Source of the DNA: Bdellovibrionales bacterium
Lineage (GTDB): Bacteria > Bdellovibrionota > UBA1018 > CAIMNF01
Assembly (NCBI GenBank): GCA_040380025.1
Contig: JBEIJY010000035.1
Location: 1 to 24,273, forward strand
Direction of reading: 5' to 3'
DNA: 24,273 bases
In this document: piece by piece, positions 1,676-10,689 of the stretch
How positions within the stretch are numbered: position 1 is the stretch's first letter
Layout of the letters: every line of letters starts with the position of its first letter
Position numbers and translations under genes: made by a program
Notes under the pieces: generated by a model
Seen by the model: only the letters and a program-made list of their open reading frames with translations
Databases searched by the model: none
Told to the model about the DNA's origin: nothing

Positions 1676-2047
1676 TCACCCCAAAGATTGCCGGAAGAGC
1701 CGGAAGGCCGCGAAAACCAGCAATAACGCAAACAATCGCTGAAGCCACGCCAGCGGCAAGTTGACCGCGATCCGCGCGCCCAGCCACGCGCCAAGAAACA
1801 TTCCGAGCGCGATCCACCCTCCGAAGCGAAGATGCTCGGGGCCGATCTTGCCCGCGGAATAATACTGCCAGACGCCGAGTGCCCCGACCGGCAGAAGCAT
1901 GGCCGCAAGGGATGTTCCGCTTGCTGCGGTCGGCGCGAAGTTCATCAAGAACACAAGCCCCGGGACCAGCACGATCCCTCCGCCGATTCCGAACAACCCC
2001 GAACAAATGCCGGCGAATGCGCCGAGAAGTATGAATCCGATCGTCAT
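1676..2047 (-). CDS. Sulfite exporter TauE/SafE (TSUP) family, half-size (about 123 aa)
   Basis: GAFAGICSGLFGIGGGIVLVP, ASGTSLAAMLLP and GAWLGARIA motifs across about 4 TM helices. ATG at 2047 is preceded by AAGGAGA. Confidence 0.9.
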   Translation of the reverse strand: MTIGFILLGAFAGICSGLFGIGGGIVLVPGLVFLMNFAPTAASGTSLAAMLLPVGALGVWQYYSAGKIGPEHLRFGGWIALGMFLGAWLGARIAVNLPLAWLQRLFALLLVFAAFRLFRQSLG

Positions 2048-2116
2048 GGCCCGAATCTCCTTTGAACGATCCAAGGATGCGGGATCGGGTACGGGGGTGA
2101 CAAGCGGAATTGTATT

Positions 2117-2146
2117 CATTCGCGATAACTTTTCTTATCGTGAATG
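2117..2146. other. dif-like palindrome, candidate tyrosine-recombinase site (alternatively an operator)
   Basis: C-ATTCGCGATAA-CTTTTC-TTATCGTGAAT-G: 11(12)-bp inverted arms with 1 mismatch around a 6-bp asymmetric spacer, with inner ATAA/TTAT as in dif sites. Intergenic, about 160 bp downstream of the recombinase stop. Confidence 0.6.
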
Positions 2147-2307
2147 TAAAAACGCCCTTGCTTCGAGTGCGGGGAAAATCGAGAAAAGCGTGAAAAACCA
2201 AGGATCAGGCCGCAAAAAGTGGACTTTACTCATGCTTTTGCTAACTGCACCCTTTGATTGTGCTTGATGATGGAGCGAGATCGGCCGGGGAAAGGGGCCG
2301 GGAAGGA

Positions 2308-3513
2308 TCAGGATTCGTCGGCAGTTCCGGGAATGCGAGGAGGGAGCGGGCGCTCGGCGCTTCCGTAATCGATCGAATGAACGGCGGACTTCTCGAGCGA
2401 GGTCTTGCGCTTATCGTACCGGGTGATCATCGTCGTAGTCGACCAGCCCGCGAATTCCTGGATCGCGCGATCCGGCACATTGTGATCCCGCGCATTCGAG
2501 ATCGCGGTCGCGCGGCAGGAGTGGGGCGATACCGCATGCGCGATTCCGGCCATGCGCGCGTATTTTCGCACCACATAGAACACGAGCGAAGAGTCGATCG
2601 ACTTATTCACCTTGCTGGTGCGATTGTTCCGCACCGGAGTGAAGAGCGGCTGGTCTGCATTCAGGTCCTTCCGCACCATGCGCGCATAGTGGCGGATCGC
2701 ATTCCAGACCGGCTCGAGAATCACCACGATCCGCTCGGAGTTTCCTTTGCCGCGGAGACGGAAGAACCGGTACCCGCGTTCGGTCTGGATCGAGGCCGTG
2801 CGGAGATCACAGAGCTCCGAGCGGCGGAGCCCGCAGTAAAAAAGGACCATGAGCACGGCGTAATGAAGCGAGCCCGAGCGAGTGTGCAGGTCGGGGAGCT
2901 TCAACACGCGGTTCACCTCTTCGTCGGTGAACCCCCGGGTTCGCGATTCCCGTCTTGGATTCAGAAACCGCACATTCTCGGCCGGATTCTTGGCGAGGAT
3001 GCCATCCTCGACCAGCCATCTGAAAAAACTGCGGAGCGAGGCAAGATGCCGGTCGATGGTCGTGTGCTCGAGCGCCTCGCTCAGGAGCTGATCCTTGTAG
3101 CCGATCACGAGCCCGCGGTCGAGGTTGGCCGAACCGGTCCGTTCGCGGCGCATGAGCCAATAGCCCATGAAGCGCTTCAGGTCTTTCGAATAGGCGCGCC
3201 TGGTGTGCTCAGATCGCTGATCCAATAAAAACGCCTCGATGCTTTTTCGGAGGGTTTCTCCGGGACGGGCGAGATCGAGCGCCCGGATTTCATCCTGTCC
3301 GGGAACTTGGGCCGGGACCTCAAGCGGGGCTGGCCTCGCTATGGGGTTCAATACTGCTTTTTTTGAAGATTTTTGCGCAGTTTCAGGCCGGATGGCGCCG
3401 GCAAACGTTCTTTGGAACTTTCGTGCCTTCCGACGCACGGGCCGCGCGCGTACGCGGGCATTGCGGGGAGTGCGACCAAGACGCTTAAGAAGAAGCGCGC
3501 CGAGTTTTGCCAT
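2308..3513 (-). CDS. Tyrosine recombinase (XerC/XerD-like fold, Cre-type Trp); true start uncertain (ATG 3513 or TTG 3351)
   Basis: Core-binding domain RSEHTRRAYSKDLKRF ... TIDRHLASLRSFFRWL...NPA. Catalytic motifs GLRRSE (R), RGKG (K), HSCR (HxxR), FAGW (H/W) and TRYD (Y). Confidence 0.93.
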   Translation of the reverse strand: MAKLGALLLKRLGRTPRNARVRARPVRRKARKFQRTFAGAIRPETAQKSSKKAVLNPIARPAPLEVPAQVPGQDEIRALDLARPGETLRKSIEAFLLDQRSEHTRRAYSKDLKRFMGYWLMRRERTGSANLDRGLVIGYKDQLLSEALEHTTIDRHLASLRSFFRWLVEDGILAKNPAENVRFLNPRRESRTRGFTDEEVNRVLKLPDLHTRSGSLHYAVLMVLFYCGLRRSELCDLRTASIQTERGYRFFRLRGKGNSERIVVILEPVWNAIRHYARMVRKDLNADQPLFTPVRNNRTSKVNKSIDSSLVFYVVRKYARMAGIAHAVSPHSCRATAISNARDHNVPDRAIQEFAGWSTTTMITRYDKRKTSLEKSAVHSIDYGSAERPLPPRIPGTADES

Positions 3514-4318
3514 TCTTCTTCTTGCTCGATTTTACCGCTTTCATGAAAGCACGCATCCGGGCGGGATCCAGCGGAGCCCCGGCCCTGCCGGCGCGCCGGA
3601 GCGTCGAGCCGACAATGAGACCGATCGCAGGAGCCGGAAGATTCGTCGCCTGAAGACCGCTTCCGATGAAGAGAGGAACTCCGCACTCTTTTGCCGCGCG
3701 GGCGGCAATCGAAAGGTCAGCCCCGGAGGGGGCTCTTCCGGTGGTGCTCCCGGTGACGATCACGCCATCAGCGCCTCCGCGGCCTGCGGTTTCTTCGATC
3801 GCAAGGGCGAGATCGTCCGAAGAAAGGGACTTTGCGTGCTTCACATGGACATCGGCAAGAATCGCCACATGCCCCGCATGGAGGCGCTCGCGCTCGCGGA
3901 TCAGCATCGCCGCCGAACCTTCGATGATTCCCTGATCGGTCGCCATGACCCCCGAGAGCACATTCACCCGGATGAAGTCGGCTCCCGTGATCGCGGCCAC
4001 CGCAAGGGCGCTTCGCGCGTCGTTCCGGAGGATGTTGATCCCGATCGGAAGGCGGGTCGCCTCGCGGACCGCGGCCGAAATCACAGACATCGCCACCACC
4101 GTCTCGGGCGGGACCTCGGAGCGGTAAAAGGGCGCATCCCCGAAGTTCTCGATAATGATGCCTTCAAAGCCTGCTTTTTCGAGCGCGCGCGCCTCGGTCA
4201 CAGCAAGGAGTCCCGCCCGTTCGAGCGCGGACGCCGGATCGAACCTCGATGCGCCGGGAGAGCCGGGCAGGGGAGGCAGATGGATCACACCGATGCAACG
4301 GGGGAGCTTTCGCTTCAT
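3485..4318 (-). CDS. btpA: BtpA/SgcQ family TIM-barrel protein
   Basis: IGVIHLPPLPGSP, IENFGDAPF, GINILRND, FIRVN, ADVHVKH, ADGVIVTGSTTG and GSG motifs. ATGA overlap with the upstream cyclophilin gene. Confidence 0.93.
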   Translation of the reverse strand: MKRKLPRCIGVIHLPPLPGSPGASRFDPASALERAGLLAVTEARALEKAGFEGIIIENFGDAPFYRSEVPPETVVAMSVISAAVREATRLPIGINILRNDARSALAVAAITGADFIRVNVLSGVMATDQGIIEGSAAMLIRERERLHAGHVAILADVHVKHAKSLSSDDLALAIEETAGRGGADGVIVTGSTTGRAPSGADLSIAARAAKECGVPLFIGSGLQATNLPAPAIGLIVGSTLRRAGRAGAPLDPARMRAFMKAVKSSKKKNGKTRRASS

Positions 4319-5327: not shown

Positions 5328-8300
5328 ATGGCAGTTTCAGTCCGAATGATCTCAATCCTTTGCCTCTTGGCTGGCCTCGGAGCGCAAGACTCGCAGGCGC
5401 AATCGAATCCGGATTGCTCCGATCTTTTGCACGGAAACAGGGATCCATCCCTTCCCGCAAGCGGCTCCTTGCCGCTTGCTGCGCAGTCCCTGGACGAGCT
5501 CCTCGGGCTGTTTTCCCGCGGCCTCATTCCCGACCTGAGCCAACCGAATCAGAGAATCGCCTTCGACCTCTACCTGAAAATCCGCTTTGGTAACCCCAAT
5601 GCCTTCCTCGGAGCCGACCCCTTGGGTCGGGTGGCCGAGGAACTCGCCCGTCATCCGGATCTCCACAAGGAGCCCTTCCGGAATTTCATCGTAGAGCAGA
5701 AGGCGTTCCGGTACGGGGTGACGGACCGCTTGGCGAAGTTCACCCTCTCTCATCTGAATAGCTCGGGACAAGTCCGCTCGAACCTTTTTCGGGTCGGGGA
5801 GAATCTCGGCTATTGGAAGCAGGTCTTCTCGTATCCGGGATCCGAGTCTGAAAAATATGGCATCAGAATGGAGGAGTTCCTGGAATCGAGGATTCCCTCC
5901 TCGCTGAGATCGGCGCTCAGAAATGCGGCCACTCCGGCAAAAGAGAGGGCGAAAACGCTGTTCTCCCATCTTCGGGAACAACGCCGGCAAATGCAAAAAA
6001 ATGGCGAGTCCGTCCAGCGAATCTCGCAAACGATGGTCGACCTGATCCACACGATCGGCTACCACGACCAATCCGTCATCGATGCGCTGAAAAGCGCCGA
6101 CGCACAAACACGGATCGGGGCCTTCCGTCAGGTCCTCGTCCTGCGGGACGAGTTCGCGATGGAGCTCGGATTCCGCGACCACTTTGCGGGAGCTTTGAAC
6201 CAGCTCGGGGTGGCGATGCCCACCGGTGTCGAGTCCGAGGCGAATCTGCCGGAAACCATCCAGTCGCTCTATGACGAGGCCGCAGCCCAAAAGAATCGGA
6301 CTGAATCCACCTTGCGATTCGAAGTCCGGCATCTCTCCCTGATCGAGTCACTGTTCCGCTCGTGCGTGGGAGGCTCGGATTGCTCGACCCGCACGTATCT
6401 GACCCGCGCACTCGATCCGAACTACCATTATTTCACCATGACCGACGAGCAGGGGCGCTCGACGGGCCAGGCGACGGTGGTTCTCGGAAGCGCCCGGGCA
6501 GGGGAGACGCCGCTTCAGACGGCCTTCCTCGACAAAGTCCAGAATGTCGATCCGGCGGTCCTGCCAGTGTTTTTGGAGGCGATCCGGCAGTCGCTCCTCG
6601 AAAAGAATCTTCGATTGGCGATTCCCATGGATCCGGGAAACCACAACGGGATCTCGAACGATGCGAGCACCCGGAATTTCATCGCAAACCGGATTCCCGT
6701 GGCCATGGAGCCGGTTCTTCTGCGCTTCAAACCCCGGCCCCACCGCTATCGCTTCGAGAACACCTATTCCCGCGCCGATCAGGCGCTTCCGATGCGCATG
6801 GTGCTTTCCGCCCCCGTTCCAGAAACCACGCGCATCCTTCCCGGCGAGATCATCACGGACTGGAAAACCCCCGAAATTCCAATCCAGAGTGCGATCGCCT
6901 CGCTGGTCGCCCTGAAGCGGGGAGGGCCGGAGGAGCAATTTCGGTATCTCTCTTCGATCCGAGCCCTCCGCAAAGCGGGACAAGTCGGTGATCCGCTCTT
7001 TGAACCCACCCTTCGCGAGTGGATCCGGAATCCGGCACTGCCTTTCCTGATCCGGAAAGAGGCCTTGCTCATCGATTGCGAAGACCATGTGCGGTCTCTT
7101 CCGGAGGCGCTCATCGCGTTTTCTCAGAAAGAACAAGTCGATCTGATCCAGAACATTCTCGATACCCCCCGGCGTCGCCACCTCATCACCGAACGGATGC
7201 CCGTGACTCCTGATCTGATCGTGCGCGTTCGATTCGTGCCGAAGGTCAGGACCATGCTGACCGAGCTGTATCCGGAGTCGATCCGGGAGTTGATCACCCG
7301 GATCGCGGAGACCGGGGATTTGAATGCGGAGCAGGTGAAGAGCTCGATCCGGTACCTCGAAAAATGCCTGAATCACGGGGATTTTTCGAGTTATGCCGGG
7401 GTTCTCCGGAATGCCGCGAACAGTGGCATCCGGGAATGGATCGAGGATCGTCTCGGGGGTCTGTTTTTGAATGACGTGCTCTCGAACGATGCTCTGGCCC
7501 GCCGCTTGAATGCTCTTCGGGAAGAAGAGGAACCGGGGATCCGCGGATTCCGGGACGCCGTGTTCGCGCGGGTCTTTTCGGAGGAACGGTTCCAGGGCTT
7601 TCCCGTTCGCGAAACCCATCAGGAAATCCTGACCCTGGCCCGGCGATCGGGCGCAGGACTGGAAGAGGCCGCATGGGAATGGCTTCGGGATCCGGCCATC
7701 GAAACCACGCGAAAAAGCGCGTTTGTTCTTTCGCAAATCGGCGCGGATCTTCCGCGATTCGATCGGGCGAGGCGCGCGGTTCCGCCGGACTTGCAAGAGG
7801 AACTCGGACGGGCGATCGAGGATCAAAGCGCGATCGGGGTTTTTCGGGCATTCGCCGAGCAAAAAAACTTGTCTCCGTTTTTGTTCCGGGAAGGCGTGGA
7901 AGAAAGCTTCCGGTTCGTCTCGGATGGATTTCCGAACGGAACCCCCGGAGGAGCGATCTTGTTCCGGATGGGCGAGGGGGACTCTGCCCGGATGGTGAAT
8001 CTTTCGGCGCCCTTTGAAATGCAGGCGACCCCGGTGACCCAGCTCCAGTGGATGATCGTAATGGGACGGAACCCGTCGATCACGGGAGTGAACGCGAAAT
8101 CCGTGAACATCGACGGCCGGCAAGTGAGCCTGGACCCGGACCATCCGGTGCTCAGGGTCAGTTGGTTCGATGCCATGGAGTTTGTTTCGCGTCTGAATTC
8201 TGCGCAGGAACAGTATGTGTACCGGCTTCCGACCTCGGCCGAGTGGGAGTTCGGAGCCCGCGCCGGTTCTCGTTCCCGCTTCTTTTTCGGCGACAACCCG

Positions 8301-8603
8301 AAAGAAATGGATCAGTACGGATGGACCGCATCGAACTCGGAGTTCATGGTTCACCCCGTGGCGCGCCTTAGACCGAACCGCTTCGGGCTCTATGATGTTC
8401 ATGGAAACATCCAGGAATGGACCGCCGACCTTGTCCGTAGCACAGGCAAATCTTCTGAATTCCGCGTGGTCCGCGGGGGATCGAACCACCTGACGGTCGA
8501 ATACGCCCGTTGCGCGTATGTCTCGGGATTTGATCCGAAAACCATCAATTCCGACCTCGGATTCCGCTTGGTTCGGGAACCGAGAAAACCGAATCCCCAC
8601 TGA
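5328..8603 (+). CDS. Large secreted protein with C-terminal formylglycine-generating enzyme (FGE-sulfatase/SUMF1, C-lectin fold) domain
   Basis: N-terminal signal-like segment. The last about 210 aa carry FRMG, TPVTQLQW..VMG.NPS, HPVLRVSWFDA..F, YRLPTSAEWEFGARAG, PNRFGLYDVHGNIQEW, RVVRGGS and LGFRLV. The first about 870 aa are unassigned. Confidence 0.85.
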   Translation: MAVSVRMISILCLLAGLGAQDSQAQSNPDCSDLLHGNRDPSLPASGSLPLAAQSLDELLGLFSRGLIPDLSQPNQRIAFDLYLKIRFGNPNAFLGADPLGRVAEELARHPDLHKEPFRNFIVEQKAFRYGVTDRLAKFTLSHLNSSGQVRSNLFRVGENLGYWKQVFSYPGSESEKYGIRMEEFLESRIPSSLRSALRNAATPAKERAKTLFSHLREQRRQMQKNGESVQRISQTMVDLIHTIGYHDQSVIDALKSADAQTRIGAFRQVLVLRDEFAMELGFRDHFAGALNQLGVAMPTGVESEANLPETIQSLYDEAAAQKNRTESTLRFEVRHLSLIESLFRSCVGGSDCSTRTYLTRALDPNYHYFTMTDEQGRSTGQATVVLGSARAGETPLQTAFLDKVQNVDPAVLPVFLEAIRQSLLEKNLRLAIPMDPGNHNGISNDASTRNFIANRIPVAMEPVLLRFKPRPHRYRFENTYSRADQALPMRMVLSAPVPETTRILPGEIITDWKTPEIPIQSAIASLVALKRGGPEEQFRYLSSIRALRKAGQVGDPLFEPTLREWIRNPALPFLIRKEALLIDCEDHVRSLPEALIAFSQKEQVDLIQNILDTPRRRHLITERMPVTPDLIVRVRFVPKVRTMLTELYPESIRELITRIAETGDLNAEQVKSSIRYLEKCLNHGDFSSYAGVLRNAANSGIREWIEDRLGGLFLNDVLSNDALARRLNALREEEEPGIRGFRDAVFARVFSEERFQGFPVRETHQEILTLARRSGAGLEEAAWEWLRDPAIETTRKSAFVLSQIGADLPRFDRARRAVPPDLQEELGRAIEDQSAIGVFRAFAEQKNLSPFLFREGVEESFRFVSDGFPNGTPGGAILFRMGEGDSARMVNLSAPFEMQATPVTQLQWMIVMGRNPSITGVNAKSVNIDGRQVSLDPDHPVLRVSWFDAMEFVSRLNSAQEQYVYRLPTSAEWEFGARAGSRSRFFFGDNPKEMDQYGWTASNSEFMVHPVARLRPNRFGLYDVHGNIQEWTADLVRSTGKSSEFRVVRGGSNHLTVEYARCAYVSGFDPKTINSDLGFRLVREPRKPNPH

Positions 8604-10551: not shown

Positions 10552-10689
10552 GCATGAGCCACACAGGCGATCCCTGACTGTTTCCTCGTTCCCAGTTCAC
10601 ATAATCATCATTATCAGACATCAAAGAACTGACGAGTCTCCCTCAAGAATTCCAGCATCAGCGCCGAGAAGCTTCTGAGGGAGTTCGTT

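Follow-up and report, generated by a model that had tools for sequence, protein, structure and literature searches.

A probable single-recombinase dimer-resolution system, likely of plasmid origin, at the chromosome terminus of Bdellovibrionota

A tyrosine recombinase gene beside a palindromic dif-like site raises the question of whether the two form a chromosome dimer-resolution system of their own, and how such a system would relate to XerC/XerD and dif. We examined such a locus in a stretch of 24,273 nucleotides (the window) on contig C35 of a Bdellovibrionales genome (G000; 98% complete, 53 contigs, 2.35 Mb). The symmetric 11-6-11 site, ATTCGCGATAA-CTTTTC-TTATCGTGAAT (2118-2145, no strand assigned), is the predicted target of the adjacent recombinase. 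The initial annotation, made from the letters alone, had described its arms as inverted copies at 10 of 11 positions, its right arm as matching the E. coli XerD arm at 8 of 11, its place as about 160 bp downstream of a complete tyrosine recombinase gene, and its surroundings as free of phage, transposase and conjugation genes. These descriptions were borne out: the arm symmetry follows from the sequence, a recount by hand against the XerD arm quoted there again gave 8/11, and the site lies 162 bp past the stop codon of a complete 401-aa reading frame (2308-3513, minus strand). A Pfam scan of 13 window proteins found no such genes besides the recombinase, the other open reading frames being judged by eye. 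On the opposite side of the site from the recombinase, tauE (Pfam TauE) starts at 2047, 70 bp away, and no sigma-70 promoter was predicted across the site within 1900-3700. Inverted repeats of the 11-6-11 shape with at most one mismatch number 83 in the 2.35-Mb genome, so a palindrome of this kind is not rare by symmetry alone; when the Xer-type inner TAA/TTA and a symmetry of at least 9/11 are added, the site is the sole match in its own genome. It has the features of a dif-type site, i.e., about 28 bp, two arms, a 6-bp spacer, an intergenic location, a single copy and variable flanks.

The 401-aa protein consists of a basic N-terminal stretch, a SAM-like core-binding domain and a catalytic domain, with PF02899 and PF00589 both above their cut-offs. 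Its catalytic residues R230, K256, H331, R334, W357 and Y366 are invariant in 23 of 23 orthologues, and with the full R-K-H-R-H/W-Y set and both domains it is a tyrosine recombinase. The AlphaFold model gave a two-domain fold (mean pLDDT 78, pTM 0.57) in which the N-terminal ~75 residues are of low confidence, and the best structural matches of this predicted model were XerA (top) and Cre. The protein belongs to none of the named groups to which it was compared. It scored 128 and 126 bits against the XerC and XerD models (TIGR02224 and TIGR02225, cut-offs 335 and 330) and fell outside the XerC/D clade; it scored 46.7 bits against XerS (NF003462, cut-off 267) and 102 bits against XerA (NF040815, cut-off 220). 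The XerH structure was not matched by the protein at E<=0.001, and the XerH score of the family profile, 70 bits, was below that of XerD (143) and also below that of XerA. Identity to one putative XerL sequence was 22% (35 bits); that sequence, CBUA0010, is a Coxiella plasmid's only annotated integrase-family gene and was taken as XerL. Membership among phage or ICE integrases was rejected as well, with a single site, no attL/attR pair and no element genes among the 13 scanned proteins.

G000 encodes four PF00589 genes: a XerD-like gene (C27), a XerC-like gene (C2), a phage-type integrase (C31) and the 401-aa recombinase. Its own XerC and XerD score 290-295 bits, below the TIGR02224/TIGR02225 cut-offs yet best in class. 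The window also holds a canonical asymmetric dif that had gone unmentioned, ATGTCTGATAA-TGATGA-TTATGTGAACT (10594-10621, minus strand), in the gap before a ricin-type lectin-domain gene. It is the predicted XerC/XerD target and a marker of the terminus, is the only close match of its kind in G000, and is of the same type as the Bdellovibrio bacteriovorus dif in Table 1 of PMC2731167 (this and the other papers are cited from extracts). The symmetric site is therefore a second site, 8.5 kb from the canonical dif. The initial annotation had implied a module that works instead of XerCD and had suggested checking for a genome lacking xerC, xerD and a canonical dif; that part does not hold, as all of them are in G000. 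It had also named, as evidence against itself, a canonical XerCD/dif elsewhere combined with a site far from the terminus. The first half applies, because G000 has XerC-like and XerD-like genes and a dif 8.5 kb away; the second does not. A leading/lagging 5-mer strand-bias score, for which 26 other contigs served as the training set, has its maximum, a weak one of 4.9, at C35:10,854; to the left of the symmetric site C35 extends for 2.1 kb, and gyrA on C6 sits at a skew switch of the opposite kind. With the dif at 10594-10621, the strand-bias peak and gyrA at the opposite switch, the terminus therefore lies in the window, where the two dif-like sites are separated by 8.5 kb, and the earlier suggestion to place the site by skew thus led to the terminus region, with a signal that is weak but consistent within C35. 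The word GGGNAGGG is skewed 222:69 between leading and lagging strands of G000, and GGTGGGG-type skewed words gave no sharper terminus on C35 or in G002.

A few further features of this genome were recorded. The words GGTGGGGC (83:5) and CGGTGGGG (63:1) are skewed towards leading strands more strongly than GGGNAGGG and are candidates for a KOPS- or Chi-like word of the lineage. A second origin-type GC-skew switch, besides that of gyrA on C6, lies on C1 near 125-130 kb and may be an inversion or a misassembly. The phage-type integrase (L004, C31:391-1530) has an excisionase-like ORF upstream (judged by eye), IS fragments alongside and the contig end nearby. Between the two sites of the window, a 1091-aa protein (5328-8603, plus strand) combines an unannotated N-terminal portion of ~880 aa with a C-terminal FGE-sulfatase domain.

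The same proximity to the terminus is seen in relatives. Of the 61 genomes of the order, 11 carry the symmetric site and the canonical dif on a common contig, separated by 0.13-52 kb and never more, and G242 is a twelfth genome with both on one contig (12 kb apart). On two long contigs the site lies 3-11 kb from the GC-skew peak: in G002 the cumulative peak (430,831) falls between site (419,824) and dif (438,320), and in G171, a complete single contig of 3.81 Mb, it is at 1,901,925, 3.2 kb from the site at 1,898,694 (49.8% of the sequence), with 13/13 sampled stretches before the peak positive and 11/11 beyond it negative. Skew peaks of G068, G131 and G111 lie 6-22 kb from the sites in the 40-140 kb read; in the 60 kb of G289 in which a switch was sought, none was seen. 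The stretches read in G220, G257, G097 and G271 show no skew switch at the gene; a clear site, CACGATAA-TGTTTC-TTATCGTG, lies on contigs other than that of the gene in G097 and G257, and its pattern was not found in G220, G090 or G271. The site thus has the terminus position of a dif-type site: it neighbours the canonical dif in 12 genomes and lies close to the skew peak in G002, G171, G068, G131 and G111, with the subgroup of G220, G097 and G257 excepted.

Gene and site also travel together. Protein matches at E<=1e-20 occurred in 38 of the 61 genomes of the order, one of which (G012) has a 60-residue fragment and was scored as lacking the gene; the site pattern, which fixes 14 of the 28 bases, matched 34 genomes, compared to one for the reversed-pattern control. 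Both were present in 33 genomes, the gene only in four, the site only in one and neither in 23, i.e., the site was found in 33 of 37 genomes with the gene vs 1 of 24 without it. (Fisher's test on this co-occurrence gave p 1e-11, which we do not rely on because kin are not independent.) The gene-only genomes (G013, G023, G032 and G056) are 64-97% complete in 180-500 contigs, and the site-only genome (G017) is 75% complete and has differing arms. One site match was found in 33 of the 34 genomes, G009 adding a second, different one. Conservation of the palindrome beside orthologues, which the initial annotation had proposed as a check, was thus confirmed as a single copy that tracks the gene, and its pairing of one recombinase with one symmetric site agrees with gene and site being gained and lost together, one each per genome. 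They share a contig in 28 of the 33 genomes, at ~60 bp to 53 kb and in either orientation. In the order, the site is mostly downstream of the gene and its asymmetric spacer is conserved (CTTTTC in 16/29), with an arm symmetry of 8-11/11 vs 4-7/11 for the canonical dif. In a set of 79 named loci, mostly labelled Oligoflexia, Bdellovibrionota or Bacteriovoracaceae and partly from the same genomes as the 61, at least 41 have the site within 10 kb and at least 8 more have a variant with one TATAA arm, many of these loci being incomplete.

The pair is patchy at close range. In genus g1, a full gene is present in 8 of 16 relatives. The 60-residue remnant of G012 (G012:C7:297,907-298,086), 4 kb from the canonical dif and without a symmetric site, is an apparent case of decay of the system. 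In G093 (G093:C124:990-3877), gene and site are duplicated in tandem, which may be a recombination product or an assembly artefact.

These counts bear on the idea that XerC acts on the site, or that the site serves as a tauE operator. Both of its arms have the inner GATAA of the XerC arm of this lineage, one arm equals the XerC arm of the window's dif at 7/11 positions, and tauE is only 70 bp away. But the site is kept in two genomes that lack XerC (G021 and G038), and of the 24 genomes in which the extra gene is absent, nearly all with XerC/D, 23 have no such site. The palindrome follows the recombinase gene, and tauE, whose linkage with it was to count against the original proposal, adjoins only 3 of 30 site loci, so that we consider this idea hardly credible. 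An integrative element that inserts near dif, with the gene as its integrase and the site as its attachment site or boundary, is also very improbable. Such elements are known to target dif (PMC9765430, PMC5357621), and the pair is patchy in genus g1; against this, the site is present in one copy instead of an attL/attR pair, has no XerD arm and has a spacer unlike that of dif. Moreover, the DNA between site and dif encodes btpA, a cyclophilin, a sulfatase-modifying-domain protein and a phosphate transporter, the gene appears to descend vertically (see below), and its best phage matches are only ~30% identical.

The initial annotation had placed the module in "this lineage"; its range turned out to be far wider, with the family and its sites spread over the phylum. 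The recombinase family profile at E<=1e-55 matched 133 of 301 Bdellovibrionota genomes, including 31/34 in family f18, 40/67 in f22, 13/20 in f16 and 6/6 in f13, and none in f21 (0/35), f25 (0/18), f23 (0/14), f15 (0/9) or f19 (0/9). In a pattern search of the 301 genomes, among the matches listed, f13, f14, f16, f18 and f28 have palindromic sites at 70-370 bp upstream from the gene match, and the families without the gene show scattered, poorly symmetric matches (f21 3/35, f25 2/18, f23 1/14, f15 1/9, f19 0/9). XerC/D-like genes are present in nearly all families, with 0/67 in f22. A wider profile that includes f22 proteins matched 76 of 81 f22 genomes; some of its weaker matches occur in several copies and are probably mobile. 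The close homologues found for an f22 protein carry the names Bacteriovorax or Bacteriovoracaceae. A relaxed site pattern gave matches too noisy to use in five f22 genomes.

Within the order, the family gene is the sole PF00589 match in the MAG G021 (97% complete, 120 contigs), and in the MAG G038 (95% complete, 190 contigs) no XerC/D-like match was found; both keep the symmetric site, and in neither did a dif search exceed its control. The site-2 protease operon follows xerD in G000 and G040; in G021 and G038 the operon is mid-contig, and the gene before it, within the ~1.5 kb of upstream sequence covered, is unrelated; scpA and trpS in this comparison were recognised by eye, and xerD of G054 lies 5.7 kb away. 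The canonical-dif pattern gave no convincing dif in G165, G094, G254 and G188 although they encode XerC/D, so that absence by pattern is weak evidence outside the order.

Family f22 contains a second, unrelated and divergent Xer-like recombinase (type X; e.g., L212 10980-12053, minus strand, with its site at G171:C1:1,879,097; further loci L297-L326), which is below all NCBIfam cut-offs and occurs in 35 of 67 f22 genomes and in no others. By hand count, a symmetric site (>=8/11) is present in 23 of 30 loci, one of them probably a chance match; it abuts the gene start and its spacer is often TTTATA. Where both are on the same contig, type X lies 7-55 kb from the family gene. Type X is possibly another undescribed single-enzyme system, and it could be the real XerCD replacement in f22.

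Other members of the superfamily deserve mention. Xer-like proteins without the catalytic set (L366, G220:C2:40,016-41,021; L367, G257:C21:227,930-228,872; L377, G097:C3:237,374-238,316; L376, G271:C1:54,183-55,032) are conserved, with the first Arg mostly replaced and the H-x-x-R histidine missing, in genomes without XerCD; they are possibly non-catalytic partners or repurposed DNA-binding proteins. Two family paralogues lie 37-47 kb apart, with differing symmetric sites nearby, in G111 (C6, 534-589 kb) and G289 (C1, 358-395 kb). Several proteins of 600-750 aa (P0295, P0327, P0332, P0333, P0349 and others) contain two tandem family-profile matches, i.e., they are fused double recombinases.

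Pairwise recombinase identity follows XerD identity (rho 0.80 over 18 genomes, 0/999 permutations), and in a quick tree the recombinase subfamilies follow host families, which suggests vertical descent. The nearest relatives outside the phylum are plasmid proteins of ~33% identity; among 8 plasmid loci fetched, 6 carry a symmetric GATAA-N6-TTATC site upstream. In a careful tree built from 24 proteins, the family and the plasmid proteins grouped together (99/97), separate from XerC/D and type X; the putative XerL, the phage integrase and a further 39 entries of the quick tree were left out. The branching order among an f22a subgroup, the plasmid group and the remainder was without support, and f22a did not resolve inside the Bdellovibrionota clade. 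This kinship points to plasmid resolvases as the likely source of the module, the plasmid-to-chromosome direction being our inference because the careful tree is unrooted.

Plasmid kinship, together with a site situated upstream of the gene, mostly a few hundred bases or less away, on the plasmids and, among the matches listed, in f13, f14, f16, f18 and f28, could also mean that the site is an operator of the recombinase, or a relic of an integrated plasmid module, without a role in chromosome segregation. We regard this as quite unlikely, since in the order the site is mostly found downstream, in either orientation and at distances of up to 53 kb, and still keeps its asymmetric spacer, while the catalytic residues are invariant, the site position tracks dif and the skew peak, and most orthologue loci of the order still have the gene behind btpA.

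One gene and one site per genome, the position at the terminus, intact catalytic residues, a tree that follows host taxonomy and plasmid kin with the same site core are the observations from which we conclude that the pair is probably a single-recombinase dimer-resolution system, likely derived from a plasmid, which coexists with XerCD/dif and sometimes replaces it. In tyrosine-recombinase chemistry (PMC2965235), symmetric arms need one protein, a tetramer acts on two sites and an asymmetric spacer sets direction. By analogy, the two inverted arms would each be bound by one monomer, the site's two sister copies would synapse in a homotetramer, and cleavage by Y366 would lead to strand exchange across the asymmetric 6-bp spacer, turning a dimer into two monomers. 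With one site per chromosome, the sister copy would be the sole partner, and a crossover would therefore convert a dimer to monomers or the reverse. Cre/loxP and XerS work (PMC2965235) suggests that FtsK would bring the sister sites together, which would account for the site's retention close to dif. Dimer resolution in E. coli by Cre/loxP inserted at dif takes place only with FtsK-C (PMC2965235), so that selection for a place near dif is predicted, as the genomes show; FtsK-gamma was found in G000, G021, G171 and G220. As to history, a plasmid multimer-resolution module may have settled at the terminus early in Bdellovibrionota, after which lineages would have kept both systems, lost the module or lost XerCD; where the site is just upstream of the gene, it may double as an operator. 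What speaks against this dimer-resolution reading is that XerCD/dif is intact in G000 and most carriers, so that the system looks redundant, and that 24 of 61 relatives do without it.

The module resembles the known single-enzyme systems in how it would work, and is none of them by sequence. XerS, XerH, XerA and XerL occur where XerCD is missing (PMC9765430, PMC2731167, PMC2965235, PMC5357621), a trait that the module lacks: absence of XerC/XerD-dif does not apply to G000 and applies only to G021, G038 and f22. Like the module, XerL/difL of Legionellales pairs one recombinase with a site of nearly perfect symmetry at the skew peak, the flanking genes vary, and relatives on plasmids have a site of their own (PMC9765430); Legionellales, however, have no XerCD (PMC9765430), whereas XerCD/dif is usually intact beside the module. 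XerS/difSL of streptococci and lactococci and XerH/difH of Helicobacter and Campylobacter likewise use a single enzyme on a site near the terminus and often near the gene (PMC2731167, PMC2965235, PMC5357621), but it is the module's site that has the classical 11-6-11 layout. Archaeal XerA/dif shares the use of one recombinase on an 11-6-11 inverted-repeat site (PMC5357621), with 21-23% identity in the fold match, and the module is in a bacterial host with FtsK. XerC/XerD-dif, predicted in Bdellovibrio bacteriovorus (PMC2731167, PMC11318664), has in common the 28-bp 11-6-11 terminus site, the inner ATAA/TTAT and the catalytic set; it differs in its less symmetric arms and is separately present. 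The closest kin, recombinases of Pseudomonas, Burkholderia, Massilia, Azotobacter and Citrobacter (e.g., NZ_CP103372.1, NZ_CP006257.1), are of the same clade, but are plasmid-borne, have no long basic N-terminal extension and are annotated only as integrase or recombinase, their resolvase role being presumed. Literature searches returned known Xer systems only and no work on this recombinase family; the supplements of PMC2731167 and PMC3025954 may list Bacteriovorax-type dif predictions, and the main text of the latter, as far as our extract of it goes, makes no mention of Bdellovibrio or Bacteriovorax.

A distinct single-enzyme system a few kb from an intact XerCD/dif in many genomes, with relatives that have lost either one, offers a natural series for how a dimer-resolution system gets replaced. 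It also provides a family of cultured predators, in which no XerC/XerD was detected, with candidate enzymes and dif sites, and adds Cre/lox-like enzyme-site pairs with differing arms. Very tentatively, many Bdellovibrionota may run two independent terminus systems with divided labour, XerCD/dif (or its replacement) acting at the septum and a domesticated plasmid resolvase unlinking multimers or catenanes earlier. If so, the phylum would show every stage of one Xer system displacing another, including a cultured family without XerCD.

An alternative to dimer resolution is that the pair recombines at the terminus for another job, e.g., FtsK-independent unlinking of catenated or multimeric chromosomes before septa form, which would explain why it is kept next to XerCD. 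Two independent recombinase/site pairs do recur at the terminus, as XerCD with the family, the family with type X (G171, G068, G131) or two paralogues (G111, G289), and XerL worked in yeast without FtsK (PMC9765430). Furthermore, most of the 61 relatives, including G000, have one GyrA/ParC-type gene and thus no separate Topo IV. But a single GyrA is found with and without the system (G170, of a family without it, also has one), and a link of the system to Topo IV absence was rejected for lack of correlation. In addition, close relatives in the same genus manage without the system, and Cre/loxP at dif produces dimers if FtsK is lacking (PMC2965235). We therefore judge this other job unlikely. 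Three f22 genomes encode a second GyrA/ParC homologue, of ~480 aa.
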